Sequence record: MN895436.1
Reading direction: 5' to 3' (one strand)
Source of the DNA: Escherichia phage teqsoen
Length of the DNA: 64,000 bases
The notes beneath the pieces are model-generated. The model was not told where the DNA came from and did no database searches. It saw only the letters and a program-made list of their open reading frames with translations. Shown in pieces: positions 6,637-13,830 of the stretch (within the stretch, counting starts at the first letter, position 1; the number at the start of each line of letters is the position of its first letter). The position numbers and the translations under genes are program-made.

Positions 6637-7601
6637 TGTATTCTTTAGAGGAATTTAATAATCAAGCAATAAACGCAGATTTCCAACGTAATAATATGTT
6701 TAGCTGCGTTTTTGCGACAACTCCATCAACTAAAAGCTCTTCGTTGATAAGTTCAATTAGCAACTTTTCTTATAATAACTTGGGCCTAAATTCAGATTGG
6801 TTAGGATTGACTCAAGGTGATATTAATCAGGGAATTACCACGCTAATTACTGCTGGCACACAAAAACTGATAAGAAAATCAGGGGTTAGTAAATATCTTA
6901 TTGGCGCTATGAGTCAACGTACAGTTCAAAGTTTATTAGGCTCATTTACAGTTGGTACATATTTAATTGACTTCTTTAACATGGCATATAACTCATCTGG
7001 ATTGATGATATATTCTGTAAAAATGCCAGAGAATAGATTATCCTATGAAACTGACTGGAACTATAACTCTCCTAATATTCGTATAACTGGAAGAGAATTA
7101 GACCCTTTGGTTATTTCATTTAGAATGGATTCAGAAGCTTGTAACTATCGTGCAATGCAAGACTGGGTTAACGCTGTTCAAGACCCAGTAACTGGATTGC
7201 GTGCTTTACCGCAAGATGTCGAGGCAGATATTCAGGTTAATCTTCATTCTCGTAATGGATTGCCTCATACTGCGGTGATGTTCACTGGATGCATTCCAAT
7301 ATCAGTGAGCGCTCCTGAGTTATCATATGATGGAGATAACCAAATAACTACATTTGACGTTACTTTTGCGTATAGAGTGATGCAGGCTGGAGCAGTTGAT
7401 AGGCAAGCTGCGCTTGAATGGCTTGAATCTGCTGCTATAAATGGTATTCAAAGCGTTCTCGGAAATAGTGGAGGTGTTACTGGACTATCTAATTCGCTTT
7501 CACGACTCAGTAGATTAGGGGGAACTGCAGGAAGCATTTCAAACATTAATACTATGACAGGAATTGTCAATTCGCAAAGTAAAATATTAGGAGCAATATA
7601 A
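6636..7601 (+). CDS. 54: Baseplate tail tube initiator gp54
   Basis: 321-aa ORF; ATGA-type overlap with gene 48; T4 order. Confidence 0.88.
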   Translation: MYSLEEFNNQAINADFQRNNMFSCVFATTPSTKSSSLISSISNFSYNNLGLNSDWLGLTQGDINQGITTLITAGTQKLIRKSGVSKYLIGAMSQRTVQSLLGSFTVGTYLIDFFNMAYNSSGLMIYSVKMPENRLSYETDWNYNSPNIRITGRELDPLVISFRMDSEACNYRAMQDWVNAVQDPVTGLRALPQDVEADIQVNLHSRNGLPHTAVMFTGCIPISVSAPELSYDGDNQITTFDVTFAYRVMQAGAVDRQAALEWLESAAINGIQSVLGNSGGVTGLSNSLSRLSRLGGTAGSISNINTMTGIVNSQSKILGAI

Positions 7602-7605
7602 CAAT

Positions 7606-7635
7606 GGGGACCTTTCGGTCCCCATATTTTTATTT
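7606..7635. terminator. Intrinsic terminator hairpin between convergent gene 54 and the alt-side operon
   Basis: GGGGACC-TTTC-GGTCCCC stem-loop followed by ATATTTTTATTT on the plus strand. Confidence 0.6.
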
Positions 7636-7920
7636 ACGGAATGAAATAAAAGCAGCAACTGAAGCAACTAAACTGTCTTCAATATAAACCTCAATTTTTA
7701 CCGGAGCTTCTGACTCAAATTTACCTGTTACTATACCCTGAAAAATACTTTCAGTCTGTTCTGGCTTTGAAAAATTTTCAGAAGGAAAAATTCCGAACTT
7801 TTTATCTGTTCCAAAAATTTTAATAAATTCATCGTAAACTGCTTCATTAAAAGCATTATCAGCAGGAATAACGCCTTCAACTACAAGTTCTTGACCTAAA
7901 AAGCGCAAAGAAGATTTCAT
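7630..7920 (-). CDS. Hypothetical protein (alt.-3-like position)
   Basis: 96-aa ORF with SD GAGGAA upstream and an early-promoter-like element further upstream. Confidence 0.6.
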   Translation of the reverse strand: MKSSLRFLGQELVVEGVIPADNAFNEAVYDEFIKIFGTDKKFGIFPSENFSKPEQTESIFQGIVTGKFESEAPVKIEVYIEDSLVASVAAFISFRK

Positions 7921-7944
7921 TTTGTGTTCCTCATGTTATGCCAG

Positions 7945-7985
7945 TAAGACTACTATAACACAACACGAGGGACTTGTAAACTACA
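7945..7985 (-). promoter_or_regulatory. Early promoter element (reverse strand)
   Basis: Reverse complement gives GTTTACA, an 18-nt spacer and a TATAGT-like -10; one copy of a repeated motif. Confidence 0.45.
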
Positions 7986-10038
7986 TTTTGAACTTTTTAG
8001 ACATTCCGTTGATGTTAACCAAAGAAGCCAAGATTTGAGAAACTTCGTTTTCCTCTTCTTTTGATTCTTCTACAAGGAATTGATTAAATCCAGCCATTGG
8101 ACGAACTTCACCAGTTTCCATTAGATGGTCGCCATCATATACCGATTCCTCTAATTGTTCAGAAGGAGGAACGATTGTACCTTCTATTAGATACTTGTTA
8201 TAAGCAGTTTCTTTCATAAAGTACGTGCTCACTTTATTAATCTTCAGTAAAATTCCACGCGGTAGAATAACTTCAGCTTCTGATGGAAATCCTGATAAAT
8301 GACCTGGAACGATAACTTTGATTCGCTCAGCTCCTTTAATTACCATACCCACGCTAGTTTCAGCATCTTCATTAGCATATGTAGAATGACTACCCATATG
8401 CATCAAATCTTCTGCATCAACGGAACCTTCTCCTTCGCCAGAAAATACTGCGCCGGAATCATCTAGAGCCATATAGTTTTTACCGTGCTCACCGAAAATA
8501 TTTGGTTTAAGCGATGTGGATACGAAGTTCTTGAAATAGAACATTTTGTTTTCAATATTATGACGCAAAGTTTTAAAGGTAACTTCTTGTCCACGGTAAA
8601 GTGTAGTTCCTGGAGGAAGAACTGAACCTTTAGCGAATGCAGAATCCAACGTCTCGATGTGCTTAATAGCACGTTCCATATATTCTTCACGGGTAGAATC
8701 TGGTTTACCCAAAAGGAACGAGTTCATTTCAACATATGAATCAGCACAATAATCTTCAATTACGTCAGATTCAGCCTGAGTTAATCCTTTTGGAGTTACT
8801 TCAGTACTTGCGTATTCATATGCCTGGGCAGCAGATTCATTAATCAATTTATAAATGCCATTCATGACAAATTGAATAATAGCTACCTTTTCATCTGGTG
8901 TGGCTTTAGAACCTTTAACTAAATCATTAATAATTTTCTTAATAACATCAAAGCTATTAGAAATATTAATGTCAGCAAGATCGCTTAAAATTTTATCGGT
9001 TTTATAATCAAAGAATTCTTTATTCTTTAAATATTCTTGAGAACCTTGATATGTTATATCGCTCTGCAGCTTGATAGATGGATCACGTAAACGTGCATGG
9101 GCCAATGCAATATGATTTCGGAAGCTTTCTAGTTCATAATCATTAGATTTAAAACGAGAAGCACTCCTCATACCACCGATAGCTCCTTTGCCGAAGTTTG
9201 AACCAATCTGAATAACGCCAGAGTTCATTGGTCCTTCTGCTTTATATACCGGAACTTTAGATTCAAACTCTTGATATTTCTTAGCGGCGAAGCTATCACC
9301 CTGAAGTGAAGCATCGACAGTAGAATATTGAGCTTGTGCTGCTAATCGACGACTAATTTTAGTTTTCTGAATAACAGCTTGATCCGTGCGCTTATCATTT
9401 TCTAAAGCAATAGAAGCAGCAACAGCAACAGCTTTAGGAACAGCATTACCTGTTTTAACGTCTACATAAACATCACCAACCTTTGATTCAACTTTTGTGA
9501 ATAACTCAGTTGAAATAGGAGGTACACCTGGAATGTCTTCTAAATTGGCATTTTTACGGTAAACCATAATATATGCATATTTCTTATCATAGTCCCAGAT
9601 TTCCTTTAAGAGAACATATCGACCTGCTCCTTTAGTACGTACTAAACGGTCAGCAATAACTTGCATTTGACGAGCTGCGCCATTTGTTTTACTCTTTAGT
9701 ACGCGGAATAGGCATGCGTCGATTTTATACTGTTTCATTGTTTGAAGAGCAGTATCAAAAACGGCATTAATGACACCAATTGGATTTCCACCCAAGTTTT
9801 TAAGCTTAACTAATGATAGTTTCTCATTGACACCTATCATTACGATATGCATCATTTTATCGCCTGGCTTAACGTTTTTATTTGTATCACCACCAGAGGT
9901 GTATGTACAAAATCTAAATCCAGGAAGCACGCTTTCTTCGCCGGCTTGGATAGCAAAAATTTGTGGTATTTTATGCTTAGGATTTAAGTTAACAACCGGC
10001 GCCGAAGCGCCGTCAAATAATTCTGTAATAAGTTCCAT
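7981..10038 (-). CDS. Alt-family ADP-ribosyltransferase paralog (685 aa)
   Basis: N-terminal ~240 aa about 75% identical to the neighbouring Alt; LYRGQ, FYFKNFVSTSL and EAEVILPRG match the R/STS/ExE toxin-type ART signature; divergent central region. Confidence 0.85.
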   Translation of the reverse strand: MELITELFDGASAPVVNLNPKHKIPQIFAIQAGEESVLPGFRFCTYTSGGDTNKNVKPGDKMMHIVMIGVNEKLSLVKLKNLGGNPIGVINAVFDTALQTMKQYKIDACLFRVLKSKTNGAARQMQVIADRLVRTKGAGRYVLLKEIWDYDKKYAYIMVYRKNANLEDIPGVPPISTELFTKVESKVGDVYVDVKTGNAVPKAVAVAASIALENDKRTDQAVIQKTKISRRLAAQAQYSTVDASLQGDSFAAKKYQEFESKVPVYKAEGPMNSGVIQIGSNFGKGAIGGMRSASRFKSNDYELESFRNHIALAHARLRDPSIKLQSDITYQGSQEYLKNKEFFDYKTDKILSDLADINISNSFDVIKKIINDLVKGSKATPDEKVAIIQFVMNGIYKLINESAAQAYEYASTEVTPKGLTQAESDVIEDYCADSYVEMNSFLLGKPDSTREEYMERAIKHIETLDSAFAKGSVLPPGTTLYRGQEVTFKTLRHNIENKMFYFKNFVSTSLKPNIFGEHGKNYMALDDSGAVFSGEGEGSVDAEDLMHMGSHSTYANEDAETSVGMVIKGAERIKVIVPGHLSGFPSEAEVILPRGILLKINKVSTYFMKETAYNKYLIEGTIVPPSEQLEESVYDGDHLMETGEVRPMAGFNQFLVEESKEEENEVSQILASLVNINGMSKKFKM

Positions 10039-10041
10039 GAT

Positions 10042-12129
10042 TTATCCTTGAACGAACTTGTAAGGCATGTTTGTAATATCTATGCAAGACGCAATAATTC
10101 CAAGAGATGATTCTACTTTCTGTTTAACATTTGATGAAACAAATGATGCAAAGTCAACTCTATCTTCTATATCACCTGTCATTGTAACCAATTCACCAGT
10201 TTCCATTAAATGGTCTCCGTCATAGATTACTGATTCGGTGAGTTCTTCTGTGGTCATAACTTCAGCTTGAATGAGTTTTGTATTATTAGATGTTGTTCCG
10301 TCATTATTAGAAGCATCAGTTATTTTATTAACTTTGACCATCAATCCGCGCGGTAGAATAACTTCAGCTTCTGTTGCTATTCCGAGACTTCCTGGATATA
10401 CAACATTAACTTTATGCGCGCCGTCAATTGCCCATCCTATTTGAACTTTAACGTATTCAGGATTTTCTTTATACGCTCTTATTTCGTTTGGATTAATAGT
10501 TATTCCTTCTTCATTTTTATCAACTGTTAATTCATTACGAGCTTCTGGTTCTAAAAGACCAATACCAGCATGTGTAATTCCAAAACGCCCAAAAATGATA
10601 GGAGTTAAAGAAGTAGATACAAAATTTCTGAAATAGAACACTTTATTTTTAACTAGCGCTTCGTATATAGGAGCAGTCATACTTTGAGCACGATAAACTG
10701 TAATGCCTTCCGGTATGCGGTCACCATTTTCAAAAGCTGAATCTAAATTATTTATAGCAGATTCAATTTCTTTTTCACTCATTACATCATATCGTTCTGG
10801 ATTGTAACGACCTAAAAGAAGATTATTAATGTCTGTATATCCTGAACCACAATATTCTCTAATGCCGCGCTTTTGTGATGGAGTATATTTAGAACCATCA
10901 CGGGCAATAGTAATATCAATCATTGGACCAGCACCAATTCCAGAAAAGCTATAAATCATTCGTTTGAGGAATTTAGTTTTTGCTGCATTCCAGGCATTTT
11001 TAGTTATTTCTTCCCAGACTTCATCTGGCTGCCCTTTACGAGTTTTATTATGTTTATCAAGCCAATTATCTTTATATTCTTCAAAGAGTTGATTAACAGC
11101 TGCTGCGTATTTCTCTAAACATTTTATTGAAGTAGTTGGTTCATTTTTAATCGCATTAAGAATTACATCTTTAATTTTTTCAGAAACTTCATTAACCTCA
11201 CTTTTTGAAAAGAATTTATAGTCATAATGAAGTTCATCTGCAGTTCCTTCAGCAATAATTTTTGCTGCCTTAGTTTTAGAAGCTAATGAATTAATTCCAA
11301 GCTTCATTTCTTCTGCTTCGGGAATTAAAGGAGCGGTAGCAGGTTTATTGAAATTAGCTGCAGTAGATTCATACTTCTGGAATAATTCACTTTCAAATCT
11401 AGAAGACTCTAACGATTGACTTTGCGCAATTGCTCTACGGGAAATTTTAACTTTAACGATTACAGCTTGATCAGAACGTTTATCATTTTCTTGCGCAATA
11501 GATGCTGCAATTGCCTCATTTTTAGTTACTTGGGCTCCAGTATCTTTATTGATATAAACATCACCGACCTTCGATTCAACCTTAGTAAAGAGCTCGGTAC
11601 TAATTTCCGGAACCCCTGGAATGTCTTCTAGTGATACATTTTTGCGATGTATAAGAATATATGCATACTTTTTATCGTAATCCCAGAGTTCCTTAAGAAG
11701 GACGTATCTGCCACCTGAACGACTACGGATAAGTCTATCAGCAATAACTTGAATTTGTCGAGCTTGACCAGCGGTTTTAGACTTAAGAATACGGAGCATA
11801 CAGGCATCAATTTTATACTGACGCATTGTTTGCATTGCAACAGTAAAAACTGAATTGATATAATTAATTGGGCTTGGACCAAGACCTTTCAATTTAGCAA
11901 TTGAACCTTTAGCAGTTAATGTAAAAGGAACAATATGCATCATTTTATCGCCCATCTTTAAATCACGATTAGTATCACCTCCAGATGTATAGGTACATAA
12001 ACGAAAGCCTGGTTGTTCAATTGCATCATCAACGTGAACTGAAAAAATTTGCGGTATTTTCTTCTTTGGATTTAAGTTTGTAATCGGAAGAGTAGTATCT
12101 TCGTCAAATAATTCTGTAATGAGTTCCAT
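10042..12129 (-). CDS. alt: Alt ADP-ribosyltransferase (capsid-packaged, injected)
   Basis: 695/696-aa ORF starting MELITELFDEDTTLPITNL, the copy closer to remembered T4 Alt; VYRAQ, FYFRNFVSTSL, EAEVILPRG motifs. Confidence 0.85.
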   Translation of the reverse strand: MELITELFDEDTTLPITNLNPKKKIPQIFSVHVDDAIEQPGFRLCTYTSGGDTNRDLKMGDKMMHIVPFTLTAKGSIAKLKGLGPSPINYINSVFTVAMQTMRQYKIDACMLRILKSKTAGQARQIQVIADRLIRSRSGGRYVLLKELWDYDKKYAYILIHRKNVSLEDIPGVPEISTELFTKVESKVGDVYINKDTGAQVTKNEAIAASIAQENDKRSDQAVIVKVKISRRAIAQSQSLESSRFESELFQKYESTAANFNKPATAPLIPEAEEMKLGINSLASKTKAAKIIAEGTADELHYDYKFFSKSEVNEVSEKIKDVILNAIKNEPTTSIKCLEKYAAAVNQLFEEYKDNWLDKHNKTRKGQPDEVWEEITKNAWNAAKTKFLKRMIYSFSGIGAGPMIDITIARDGSKYTPSQKRGIREYCGSGYTDINNLLLGRYNPERYDVMSEKEIESAINNLDSAFENGDRIPEGITVYRAQSMTAPIYEALVKNKVFYFRNFVSTSLTPIIFGRFGITHAGIGLLEPEARNELTVDKNEEGITINPNEIRAYKENPEYVKVQIGWAIDGAHKVNVVYPGSLGIATEAEVILPRGLMVKVNKITDASNNDGTTSNNTKLIQAEVMTTEELTESVIYDGDHLMETGELVTMTGDIEDRVDFASFVSSNVKQKVESSLGIIASCIDITNMPYKFVQG

Positions 12130-12151
12130 CATATCCTCTCTAGTGTTTATT

Positions 12152-12183
12152 CTATTTATAAAATTAAAGGCCCGAAGGCCTTT
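12152..12183 (-). terminator. Stem-loop / candidate terminator upstream of alt
   Basis: AAAGGCC-CGAA-GGCCTTT hairpin; reverse strand followed by AATTTTAT. Confidence 0.4.
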
Positions 12184-12370
12184 AATAATCTATAGGTAAG
12201 AGAGTACGATATATTTCAAACTTTGGACCTTTTTCATAAGCATCAAAAGTTTCTGTGAATTTATTATAAGCATATGCATCTATAAATTCAATCATGATTT
12301 GTGATACAGAAGTAGAAACATCTCCACCTTCTTTTTGAGCCACGACAATTGTTTCTAAGTAAGCTTTCAT
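12182..12370 (-). CDS. Hypothetical small protein (alt.1-like position)
   Basis: 62-aa ORF between ligase and alt. Confidence 0.5.
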   Translation of the reverse strand: MKAYLETIVVAQKEGGDVSTSVSQIMIEFIDAYAYNKFTETFDAYEKGPKFEIYRTLLPIDY

Positions 12371-13830
12371 AAACCAGTTACCTCATGAAAATCACCAAAT
12401 ACATCCTCGAATGTATTAGCTTTAGTTTTATCTTCACGCAAACGAATCGCAATTGGAAGAAATAATTTAACGTAATCAGTGCGGCCATCGGATTTTAACC
12501 AACCGTTGCATTCGCACTCTAGAATTTTTCCAATATAATAATTTTGGTTTTCCATAATGCGAGTACGGTCAAGTTCATGTGATTTTACGCCGGCTTTATC
12601 TTTTAAGCCTGAACCGGCATTTACCTTAATTTTTCCACACTCTGACTCAAGAATAAATCCACCTGCTTTAGTAGGGTCTTTACGGTGAGGATAAATTCCT
12701 ACAATTTTTAAATCAACATCAATTACTTCTTTAAATTTATAGAGATTTTTTGAACGAGCATTTTCCCATAATCCATCGATATTTTTGAGAATAATACCTT
12801 CAAGACCTTGGTCAATATACTTTTTATAAATTACCTTAGCTTCATCTAGGTTATTTACTACTTGGTTTTCAATTAAAATTACTTTATCATAGCCTGATGT
12901 CATTTGTTCTAATTTAGAAAAACGTACATCATATTTTAAACGAAATGCTGGAAGACCGTATATTTCTACCAACGGAACATAATCCCAGACCTGAAACTTC
13001 ATGCATTGAGCTTCTTTTTCTGAAATAGTTCCCTTTAAAGATTTATTAGCGATTCCATTAGAAGTAGTACGTGATTCAGCTACTTCAGCAAACTCTTTAG
13101 CTTTACTAATTTCAGGATAAGCATCAAAAAGAAAATCTAGGCCTTCTGGCTCCTTTTTAACTTGCTCATGGTATACCAATTCGCCATCAATTAACACACC
13201 TCCTGGATGAATCTGGCGGGCTTCAGCGGTCATTTTGATTAACTCTTCCTTAAGAAGATCTAATCCTAGATATTCATTACCAGCTCGTGATAAAAGACGG
13301 ACATCATCTAATTCATCACCTCTAACTTCAGCAAAACACCGAGCTCCATCTGCTTTTAATTGTGCAAAGGCTGGAAATTTGATATTCTTACTAATGCCTT
13401 TTTCATCATAAGAACTTGCGAGCATTTGAGGTTGTTCAGGAATTAAACCTGGCCAAACTTTGTTTGCAATAGATACTGAAGCACCGCATTCAAGGTCTCG
13501 CATCATCACTCGACGCAAAACTTCAACATCATCTTTTTTACCATCGGTGATATATCCAGATAATTCCTCAATTGCCGCATTTCCGGTCAATTTCCGAGTA
13601 GCTAACGTGAATTCAATGAAGTCAAGCATATCGGTAAGAGTCAACATTCCAAAACTCTGGGTAGCAATACCAGATTTAGGCCATTTCTTGATATAATACT
13701 GCAACCCACGAGAATAAGTCAGACGATATACTCGTTTAAGCAATTCATTATCTTTATTCTTTTCAAGAATTGCTTGCTTCTGCTTAGTTGAACCAATAGA
13801 TGCTATTTCGTTTAGAATTTTAAGAATCAT
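12367..13830 (-). CDS. 30: ATP-dependent DNA ligase gp30
   Basis: 487-aa ORF; KADGAR adenylation motif (QLKADGARCF); T4 ligase length. Confidence 0.95.
   Translation of the reverse strand: MILKILNEIASIGSTKQKQAILEKNKDNELLKRVYRLTYSRGLQYYIKKWPKSGIATQSFGMLTLTDMLDFIEFTLATRKLTGNAAIEELSGYITDGKKDDVEVLRRVMMRDLECGASVSIANKVWPGLIPEQPQMLASSYDEKGISKNIKFPAFAQLKADGARCFAEVRGDELDDVRLLSRAGNEYLGLDLLKEELIKMTAEARQIHPGGVLIDGELVYHEQVKKEPEGLDFLFDAYPEISKAKEFAEVAESRTTSNGIANKSLKGTISEKEAQCMKFQVWDYVPLVEIYGLPAFRLKYDVRFSKLEQMTSGYDKVILIENQVVNNLDEAKVIYKKYIDQGLEGIILKNIDGLWENARSKNLYKFKEVIDVDLKIVGIYPHRKDPTKAGGFILESECGKIKVNAGSGLKDKAGVKSHELDRTRIMENQNYYIGKILECECNGWLKSDGRTDYVKLFLPIAIRLREDKTKANTFEDVFGDFHEVTGL

Follow-up and report, generated by a model that had tools for sequence, protein, structure and literature searches.

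The complete alt locus of Escherichia phage teqsoen: two old tandem Alt-family ADP-ribosyltransferase paralogs

Escherichia phage teqsoen (sequence record MN895436.1) carries two adjacent genes of the Alt family of ADP-ribosyltransferases (ARTs) on the minus strand of the 64,000-nucleotide (nt) stretch of DNA that was analyzed here and that is referred to below as the window. The open reading frames (ORFs), both confirmed in the ORF list, lie at 10042..12132 (696 amino acids, aa) and 7981..10038 (685 aa) and are separated by a gap of 3 nt, with the junction reading CAA GGA TAA atc ATG. Their products are 41% identical over the full length (BLASTP, E = 2e-163), which bears out the description of two neighboring, same-strand, full-length Alt-family ORFs given in a first-pass annotation of this DNA. 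That annotation had placed the pair directly between gene 54 and the DNA ligase gene; the immediate same-strand neighbors are instead alt.-3 (96 aa, DUF5498), downstream of the pair, and alt.1 (62 aa), upstream of it, and gene 54 and the ligase gene (gene 30) lie one gene further out on either side. The order that defines the position of the Alt family in the T4 genome (gene 54, alt.-3, alt, alt.1, and gene 30) is kept in the window. On the plus strand, the stretch occupied by the pair contains short ORFs only (52-93 aa). No Rfam family matched positions 7400-12600, and a search of NCBIfam yielded no family for the 685-aa or the 696-aa protein. An assembly artifact as the source of the pair is ruled out by the occurrence of the same arrangement in hundreds of independent genomes.

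The gene at 10042..12132 is alt, in a T6-type allele. Its product matches phrog_802 colinearly over aa 1-695 (E = 1.5e-273) and PF03496 (E = 1.8e-37), and is 99.1% identical in aa sequence to T6 alt. The gene opens with a tandem ATGATG (12127-12132, minus strand), as it does in T4, and the ORF finder took the first of these triplets to give 696 aa. The second ATG, at 12129, is most likely the true start because GAGG lies 5 nt before it and because it agrees with the T4 annotation; the product would then comprise 695 aa, begin with MELITELFD, and have a precursor mass of 77.7 kDa. The gene at 7981..10038 encodes a second Alt paralog of 685 aa (precursor 75.9 kDa), which matches phrog_802 colinearly over aa 1-685 (E = 5.4e-256) and PF03496 (E = 7.5e-20) and is 99.0% identical to the second copy of T6. 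The orthologue of this gene in RB32 is alt.-2, and what T4 annotates as alt.-1 and alt.-2 is a remnant of the gene that is intact here. The locus as a whole is an ordinary Tequatrovirus (T-even) alt locus in its complete form, with two old tandem paralogs of the R-S-E type of mono-ADP-ribosyltransferase.

The distribution of the pair was assessed by megablast of positions 7600-12400, which retrieved 543 phage records, of which 340 align over 80% or more of the query, with identities reaching 98%; nearly all are Tequatrovirus. The region is 97-98% identical at the DNA level to many Tequatrovirus genomes in which two ADP-ribosyltransferase genes are annotated at this place, under names such as "Alt-like RNA polymerase ADP-ribosyltransferase (x2)" and "alt_1/alt_2". 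In RB32 the pair is named alt and alt.-2, and the record adds the remark "apparent insertion in alt.-2; similar to alt". T6 and T2 contain the same pair (2058 nt + 2094 nt), and Dhakavirus JS10 has the pair in the same order. The central part of the 685-aa protein, which is unique to it, was found in 445 records, in 401 of them at 95% identity or more. With the pair annotated in about 400 phage records, that is, in hundreds of genomes including T2, T6, and RB32, the arrangement is an already known genomic feature, and the novelty implied by the first-pass annotation has to be given up. Nolan et al. (2006, PMC1524935) listed T4 alt.-1 and alt.-2 as paralogous duplications of alt and reported that phage 44RR has a duplicate of alt in full length; Alt paralogs are also noted in PMC13600099. 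As a discovery, a feature in print since 2006 matters little.

T4 has two short ORFs at this place, alt.-1 (61 aa, NP_049810) and alt.-2 (67 aa, NP_049809); according to the T4 record, they go back to an old duplication that covered the initial part of alt. Together they align, with a frameshift, to the first ~118 residues (116 codons) of the 685-aa protein. The PHROGs built on these two T4 ORFs match the 685-aa copy with E = 2e-40 and 3e-38, compared with E = 1e-21 and 2e-19 for alt. Alignment by blastn showed that positions 8001..9690 (minus strand) are absent in T4, with a 9-nt overlap at the junction, which amounts to a deletion of ~1.69 kb. Hence, what T4 retains as alt.-1 and alt.-2 was left behind when a full-length second gene suffered this deletion. 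A probe across the T4 junction was continuous in 91 of 498 records and split at the junction in the rest; taken together with the 445 records that contain the center of the second copy, these T4-type junctions indicate that the intact pair is the majority state and T4 the exception. The 685-aa copy might, as the first-pass annotation allowed, have been an already characterized gene of T4 itself; T4 has a counterpart only in the form of the remnant, and our literature search found no biochemical, virion proteomic, or genetic study of an intact second Alt copy.

Both proteins have a common layout, in which a 6-residue N-terminal propeptide and a conserved α/β domain of ~230 aa precede a paralog-specific helical center of ~175 aa, and a catalytic domain of the C3/VIP2 type leads into a C-terminal propeptide (54-63 aa). 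In the 685-aa protein, these parts are encoded, all on the minus strand, at 10021..10038 (propeptide MELITE), 9325..10020 (α/β domain, aa 7-238), 8794..9324 (center, aa 239-415), 8146..8793 (R-S-E ART domain, aa 416-631, delineated by Pfam, motifs, conservation, and predicted fold), and 7984..8145 (54-aa C-terminal propeptide). The 63-aa C-terminal propeptide of alt is encoded at 10045..10233 (minus strand) and differs from that of T4 Alt at one residue. In a MAFFT alignment, the paralogs are 68% identical over aa 1-238 (67.9%), 23% identical over the centers (aa 239-415) in a gappy alignment that leaves these regions effectively unaligned, and 36% identical over aa 411-620. Within the catalytic domain, the loops at aa 521-575 are just 16% identical, compared with 48% around the ExE motif and beyond (aa 576-645). 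The close N-terminal similarity reported in the first-pass annotation is therefore real, at 68% rather than ~75%, and so is the lack of detectable similarity between the centers, over ~175 aa rather than ~250 aa.

AlphaFold2 models of the 685-aa protein and alt had a mean predicted local distance difference test (pLDDT) score of 75.6 and 77.2, respectively. In both models the center is all-helical from ~aa 250, with pLDDT values of ~85-95 over ~aa 270-415, a similar series of helices, and a comparable length. For the 685-aa protein, the values were 55-75 at aa 239-270 and ~85-93 at aa 270-415. The N-terminal α/β domain is presumed to serve incorporation into the head core and ejection, and the center of the 685-aa protein is a candidate target-recognition module. 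A second family, PF26846, appears in the precomputed Pfam annotation of all full-length Alt homologues and is probably the Alt N-terminal domain; our own Pfam search of these proteins returned PF03496 only.

The match to PF03496 (ADPrib_exo_Tox) reached 71.5 bits for the 685-aa protein and 129 bits for the 696-aa protein, both above the gathering cut-off of 23.4 bits. Three motifs occur in both proteins, TVYRAQ or TLYRGQ, FYF(R/K)NFVSTSL, and EAEVILPRG, so that the complete R/STS/ExE signature read in the first-pass annotation stands. The residues concerned are, on the minus strand, R482 (8593-8595), S507-T508-S509 (8512-8520), and E587-A-E589 (8272-8280) in the 685-aa protein, and R480 (10690-10692), S505-T-S507 (10609-10617), and E587-A-E589 (10363-10371) in alt. 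In 21 sequences spanning both paralog lineages, R482, S507, S509, E587, and E589 are invariant and T508 is nearly so. The aromatic-Arg pair of strand 1 (LYR482 and VYR480) aligns to YR in VIP2 and CDTa, and E587-A-E589 of both proteins, in the ARTT loop, aligns to the EYE of CDTa and the EKE of VIP2; an alignment to the catalytic residues of iota toxin was obtained as well. The STS motif was placed by motif and conservation, as phmmer left this stretch unaligned to the solved toxins. A phmmer search of the full-length 685-aa protein against PDB sequences gave no match at E ≤ 0.01. When the predicted structure of the same protein was compared with the PDB, the C-terminal fold matched best to Vis, Certhrax, C3, CDTa, iota toxin, and VIP2, with E values down to 1e-8 and target-normalized TM-scores of 0.6-0.68. 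Within the R-S-E clade, the ExE form of the last motif is the arginine-specific type.

Alt of T4 is packaged in the head and injected, and is an NAD+:arginine ADP-ribosyltransferase that modifies the α subunit of RNA polymerase and other host proteins; reviews treat it as the prototype of injected ARTs (PMC5512222, PMC9503650). Mass spectrometry has shown that cleavage of T4 Alt by the prohead protease gp21 occurs at ITE-6 and LTE-619 and leaves a mature protein of 68.2 kDa (Ali et al. 2017, PMC5694885), a mass that we reproduced from the T4 sequence. By motif match, the N-terminal site, MELITE|LFD, is identical in T4 Alt and both window proteins. For alt, gp21 motifs were found at ITE-6 and LTE-632|SVIYDGD (EELTE|S), with a predicted mature mass of 70.1 kDa; for the 685-aa copy, they were found at ITE-6 and LEE-631|SVYDGD (EQLEE|S), with a predicted mature mass of 69.1 kDa. 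The C-terminal LxE|S motif is kept in 20 of the 21 sequences, and both JS10 paralogs keep the N-terminal LxE as well as the C-terminal LxE|S-V-(V)-YDGD. Since the second copy retains both of the prohead-protease sites mapped in T4 Alt, it is probably packaged, processed, and injected like Alt.

Just past the C-terminal gp21 site, both proteins contain the invariant sequence YDGDHLMETGE. The first-pass annotation was right that DGDHLMETGE is shared and wrong to make it the end of the proteins, as it lies 41-52 residues before the C-terminus, within the propeptide that is discarded. The tail around it is disordered in both AlphaFold2 models. Strict conservation within a removed segment that is predicted to be disordered suggests a role in core targeting, tethering, or auto-inhibition.

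Selection acting on the second copy was assessed from synonymous and nonsynonymous differences, expressed as the respective rates (dS and dN). Between the window and T6, the second copy shows 54 synonymous versus 8 nonsynonymous differences (dN/dS 0.04, low in all domains), with 15 versus 4 in the center, and a comparison with JS10 gave a dN/dS of 0.15. The second copy is thus under strong purifying selection. Constraint on all domains, together with an uninterrupted frame of exactly 685 aa in T2, T6, RB32, and the window alike, a center that is at least 95% identical in 401 records, and invariant catalytic residues and protease motifs, is hard to reconcile with a redundant or decaying duplicate that is weakly expressed or not expressed, unpackaged, or catalytically dead and on its way to a T4-like loss. 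Such decay would agree with the full viability of T4, which like the 91 of 498 related records retains just the frameshifted 116-codon remnant, and with the lower Pfam score of the second protein and the lack of a late promoter adjoining its gene. On balance, we consider decay of the second copy improbable.

Between the two window paralogs, dS ranged from 1.1 to 4 in every segment, that is, synonymous sites are saturated. It follows that the duplication is old and that the similarity of the N-terminal domains (dN/dS 0.17, dS ~1.7) reflects constraint. Recent gene conversion as the source of this similarity was rejected on account of the same dS value; old conversion or module exchange in the N-terminal domains is likely. 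The N-terminal domains cluster by genome, with 67.9% identity between the window paralogs, 65.1% between the JS10 paralogs, and 46% between cross-genus orthologs; the remaining segments (center, ART domain, and C-terminal propeptide) group according to paralog lineage. This pattern points to an old within-genome homogenization of the first ~240 codons, to exchange of effector modules between genera, or to both.

The central domains fall into two groups, within which similarity remains significant down to 22-33% identity. All-against-all BLASTP of the central domains gave no cross-group match below E = 0.1 and no bridging sequence, and hhalign of the two group profiles gave a probability of 0.9%, so that homology between the groups is not shown by sequence. 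The first-pass annotation spoke of swapped central domains, and one could accordingly regard one of the genes as a recent recombinant in which an unrelated center was inserted into an Alt backbone. The contrast between centers without detectable similarity and N-terminal domains at 68% identity would fit this, as would the clustering of the latter by genome, which implies some past module exchange or gene conversion, and the cassette replacement seen between alt alleles (see below). A recent event is nevertheless excluded by the saturation of synonymous sites, N-terminal ones included (dS 1.7), and by the conservation of each center within its own lineage across genera to Dhakavirus (44.5% and 67.8%). 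Moreover, the centers occupy the same position, have a similar length, and are both predicted to be all-helical with a similar helix order, and in Foldseek the two full-length models gave colinear alignments to two shared third-party Alt proteins, those of SP18 (644 and 712 columns) and phiAS5 (744 and 753 columns). A comparison through helix order and shared third-party proteins, which here takes the place of a direct superposition, is weak evidence, and with that proviso divergence of the centers from a common helical domain appears at least as likely as an ancient replacement. We regard the reading as a recent recombinant as unlikely.

Real cassette exchange has taken place between alleles of alt, namely, the T4 type and the T6 type. 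Compared with T4 Alt, the alt product of the window is 99.6% identical over aa 1-246 and 94.3% identical over aa 590-695, and only 44.8% identical over aa 247-589 (29.5% in the center and 60.5% in the ART core). This allelic effector cassette, which comprises the center and the ART core up to the ExE motif, is encoded at 10363..11391 (minus strand). With respect to T4, the DNA breakpoints of the alt cassette are sharp and lie at ~11391 and ~10365, the latter at the ExE codons. The cassette is 98% identical to the T6 alt entry X69894 from the 1990s, and the T6 type occurs in ~318 records at 90% identity or more. Both alt allele types co-occur with an intact second gene; phage G3F7, for example, combines an intact second copy with a T4-type alt. 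The ART core of the window alt is 93% identical to that of JS10 alt, yet the N-terminal domains are only 46% identical, which suggests that the T6-type cassette has moved between genera.

Possible expression signals were sought around both genes. A T4-type late promoter box, TATAAATA, lies at 12153..12160 (minus strand), 21-24 nt upstream of the alt start. Exact matches to TATAAATA number 9 in the window versus 9.15 expected by chance, meaning that a single match carries no statistical weight, and the box was taken as a late promoter because of its position and its conservation upstream of T4 alt. Between alt.1 and this box, a G+C-rich hairpin (AAAGGCC-TTCG-GGCCTTT, 12166..12183, minus strand) precedes a T-rich run and has the appearance of a terminator; it was read from the sequence and is absent from the output of the terminator scan. 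Hairpin and box precede alt in the window exactly as they do in T4, and a conserved terminator upstream of alt has been described (PMC1524935). At the junction of the two genes (10039..10049, minus strand), a Shine-Dalgarno sequence, AAGGA (10049-10045), overlaps the last codons of alt and is followed by the stop codon TAA (10044-10042) and the 3-nt spacer, an arrangement that makes translational coupling possible. The terminator scan showed no terminator-like site between the genes. No late promoter adjoins the start of the second gene; the nearest TATAAATA, at 10749-10756, lies 710 nt upstream inside alt and was not adopted as a promoter in view of this distance and of exact matches being at chance level. 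Given that the second gene lacks a late promoter of its own, we infer co-transcription across the 3-nt gap, and the box at 12153..12160 probably drives both genes.

Combining these observations, the following course of events can be proposed. Late transcription of both genes would start from the TATAAATA box that precedes alt, and translation of the second gene would rely on its own Shine-Dalgarno sequence, which overlaps the last alt codons. The two proteins would be incorporated into the prohead core and trimmed by gp21 at ITE|L and LxE|S to mature forms of ~69-70 kDa, and would then be injected with the DNA to ADP-ribosylate host proteins using NAD+. Their target sets would differ because the central domain and the loops of the catalytic domain differ. 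T4, in this scheme, lost the second enzyme by the 1.69-kb deletion. Gene identity, orthology, distribution, conserved motifs and cleavage sites, purifying selection, and predicted folds were established by the analysis, and co-transcription, packaging, processing, enzymatic activity, and distinct targets are proposed on that basis. An ordinary, complete alt locus of two old tandem paralogs that probably act in this way is in our view the best overall explanation, with a probability of roughly 80%.

Several points weigh against it. Production, packaging, cleavage, and activity of the 685-aa protein are predictions from sequence features rather than direct observations, and the idea of different targets is drawn from sequence divergence. 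The Pfam score of the second protein is far weaker than that of alt, and its isolated ART domain gave marginal sequence matches to solved ARTs (E = 0.01-0.05). Its gene has no adjoining late promoter. Finally, T4 and ~18% of the related records lack an intact second copy, and even Alt is dispensable (PMC9026906), so any role of the second copy would be accessory.

The practical value of the locus is as a reminder that T4, the model phage, is the exception: the majority of T-even phages, among them T2 and T6, probably deliver two different ADP-ribosyltransferases into the host at time zero. A more far-reaching proposal, which we make tentatively and at slightly less than even odds, is that alt.-2 encodes a packaged, injected ART with host targets distinct from those of Alt, possibly defense or stress proteins, and that the locus resembles a polymorphic toxin system, in which a conserved scaffold for capsid delivery (the N-terminal domain and the two propeptides) carries effector cassettes that move between phage genera. 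If this were true, the loss of alt.-2 in T4 would contribute to phenotypic differences between T4 and T2/T6-like phages. The pattern of a scaffold with variable cassettes could also serve for loading foreign enzymes into capsids or in seeking counter-defense functions.

Some features of the surroundings may be added. The product of alt.1 (12182-12370, minus strand) matches the Pfam family PF24647, "Phage_blade" (E = 7.5e-29). In the T6 record AP018814, alt.1 and its neighbors bear names that were plainly transferred in error, such as "siderophore-interacting protein" and "major capsid protein" on small early genes. Directly after the stop codon of the 685-aa ORF and before alt.-3, an early-type promoter with extended TG (GTTTACA-17 nt-TATAGT) lies at 7952-7980 (minus strand); the T4 deletion ends just upstream of it, so that the promoter is preserved in T4. 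Between the converging genes 54 (plus strand) and alt.-3 (minus strand), a perfect 9-bp G+C-rich hairpin with T-runs on both strands (7604-7625) looks like a bidirectional terminator.

The closest counterparts of the second copy are RB32 alt.-2 (YP_803136), T2 BBF63359, and T6 BBF63615, which occupy the same position, have the same length of 2058 nt, and show no difference of substance; the JS10 orthologue (YP_002922542) is 51% identical to the 685-aa protein. T4 Alt (gpAlt, NP_049811) is the orthologue of the window alt and has the same promoter region and the same two gp21 sites. T4 Alt and the 685-aa protein are 41% identical and agree in their whole domain order, in the catalytic motifs, and in the motifs of both propeptides. 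They differ in the center, where no similarity is detectable, in the catalytic domain, where identity is 37%, and in the C-terminal propeptide, which is shorter in the 685-aa protein. ModA and ModB, the early-expressed ARTs of T4, are small proteins of ~200 aa that are produced after infection rather than packaged and whose genes lie elsewhere in the genome. They belong to the same R-S-E clade (PMC5512222).

The T4 internal proteins IPI-IPIII resemble the Alt proteins in having a short N-terminal propeptide that ends in LxE or IxE and is removed by gp21, in being packaged in the head, and in being injected (PMC7697877, PMC9026906). Alt-family proteins are ~10 times larger, are present in ~40 copies, and lose a C-terminal propeptide as well (PMC5694885). 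With the bacterial R-S-E toxins of PF03496, namely, C3 exoenzyme, VIP2, iota toxin Ia, CDTa, and Vis, the phage proteins have in common the catalytic domain family, the motifs, and the predicted fold, at a sequence identity of ~15-20%. Unlike these toxins, the phage proteins have neither a binary-toxin binding component nor a secretion signal, and they add ~415 aa of N-terminal and central domains as well as protease-removed propeptides for delivery by the capsid.

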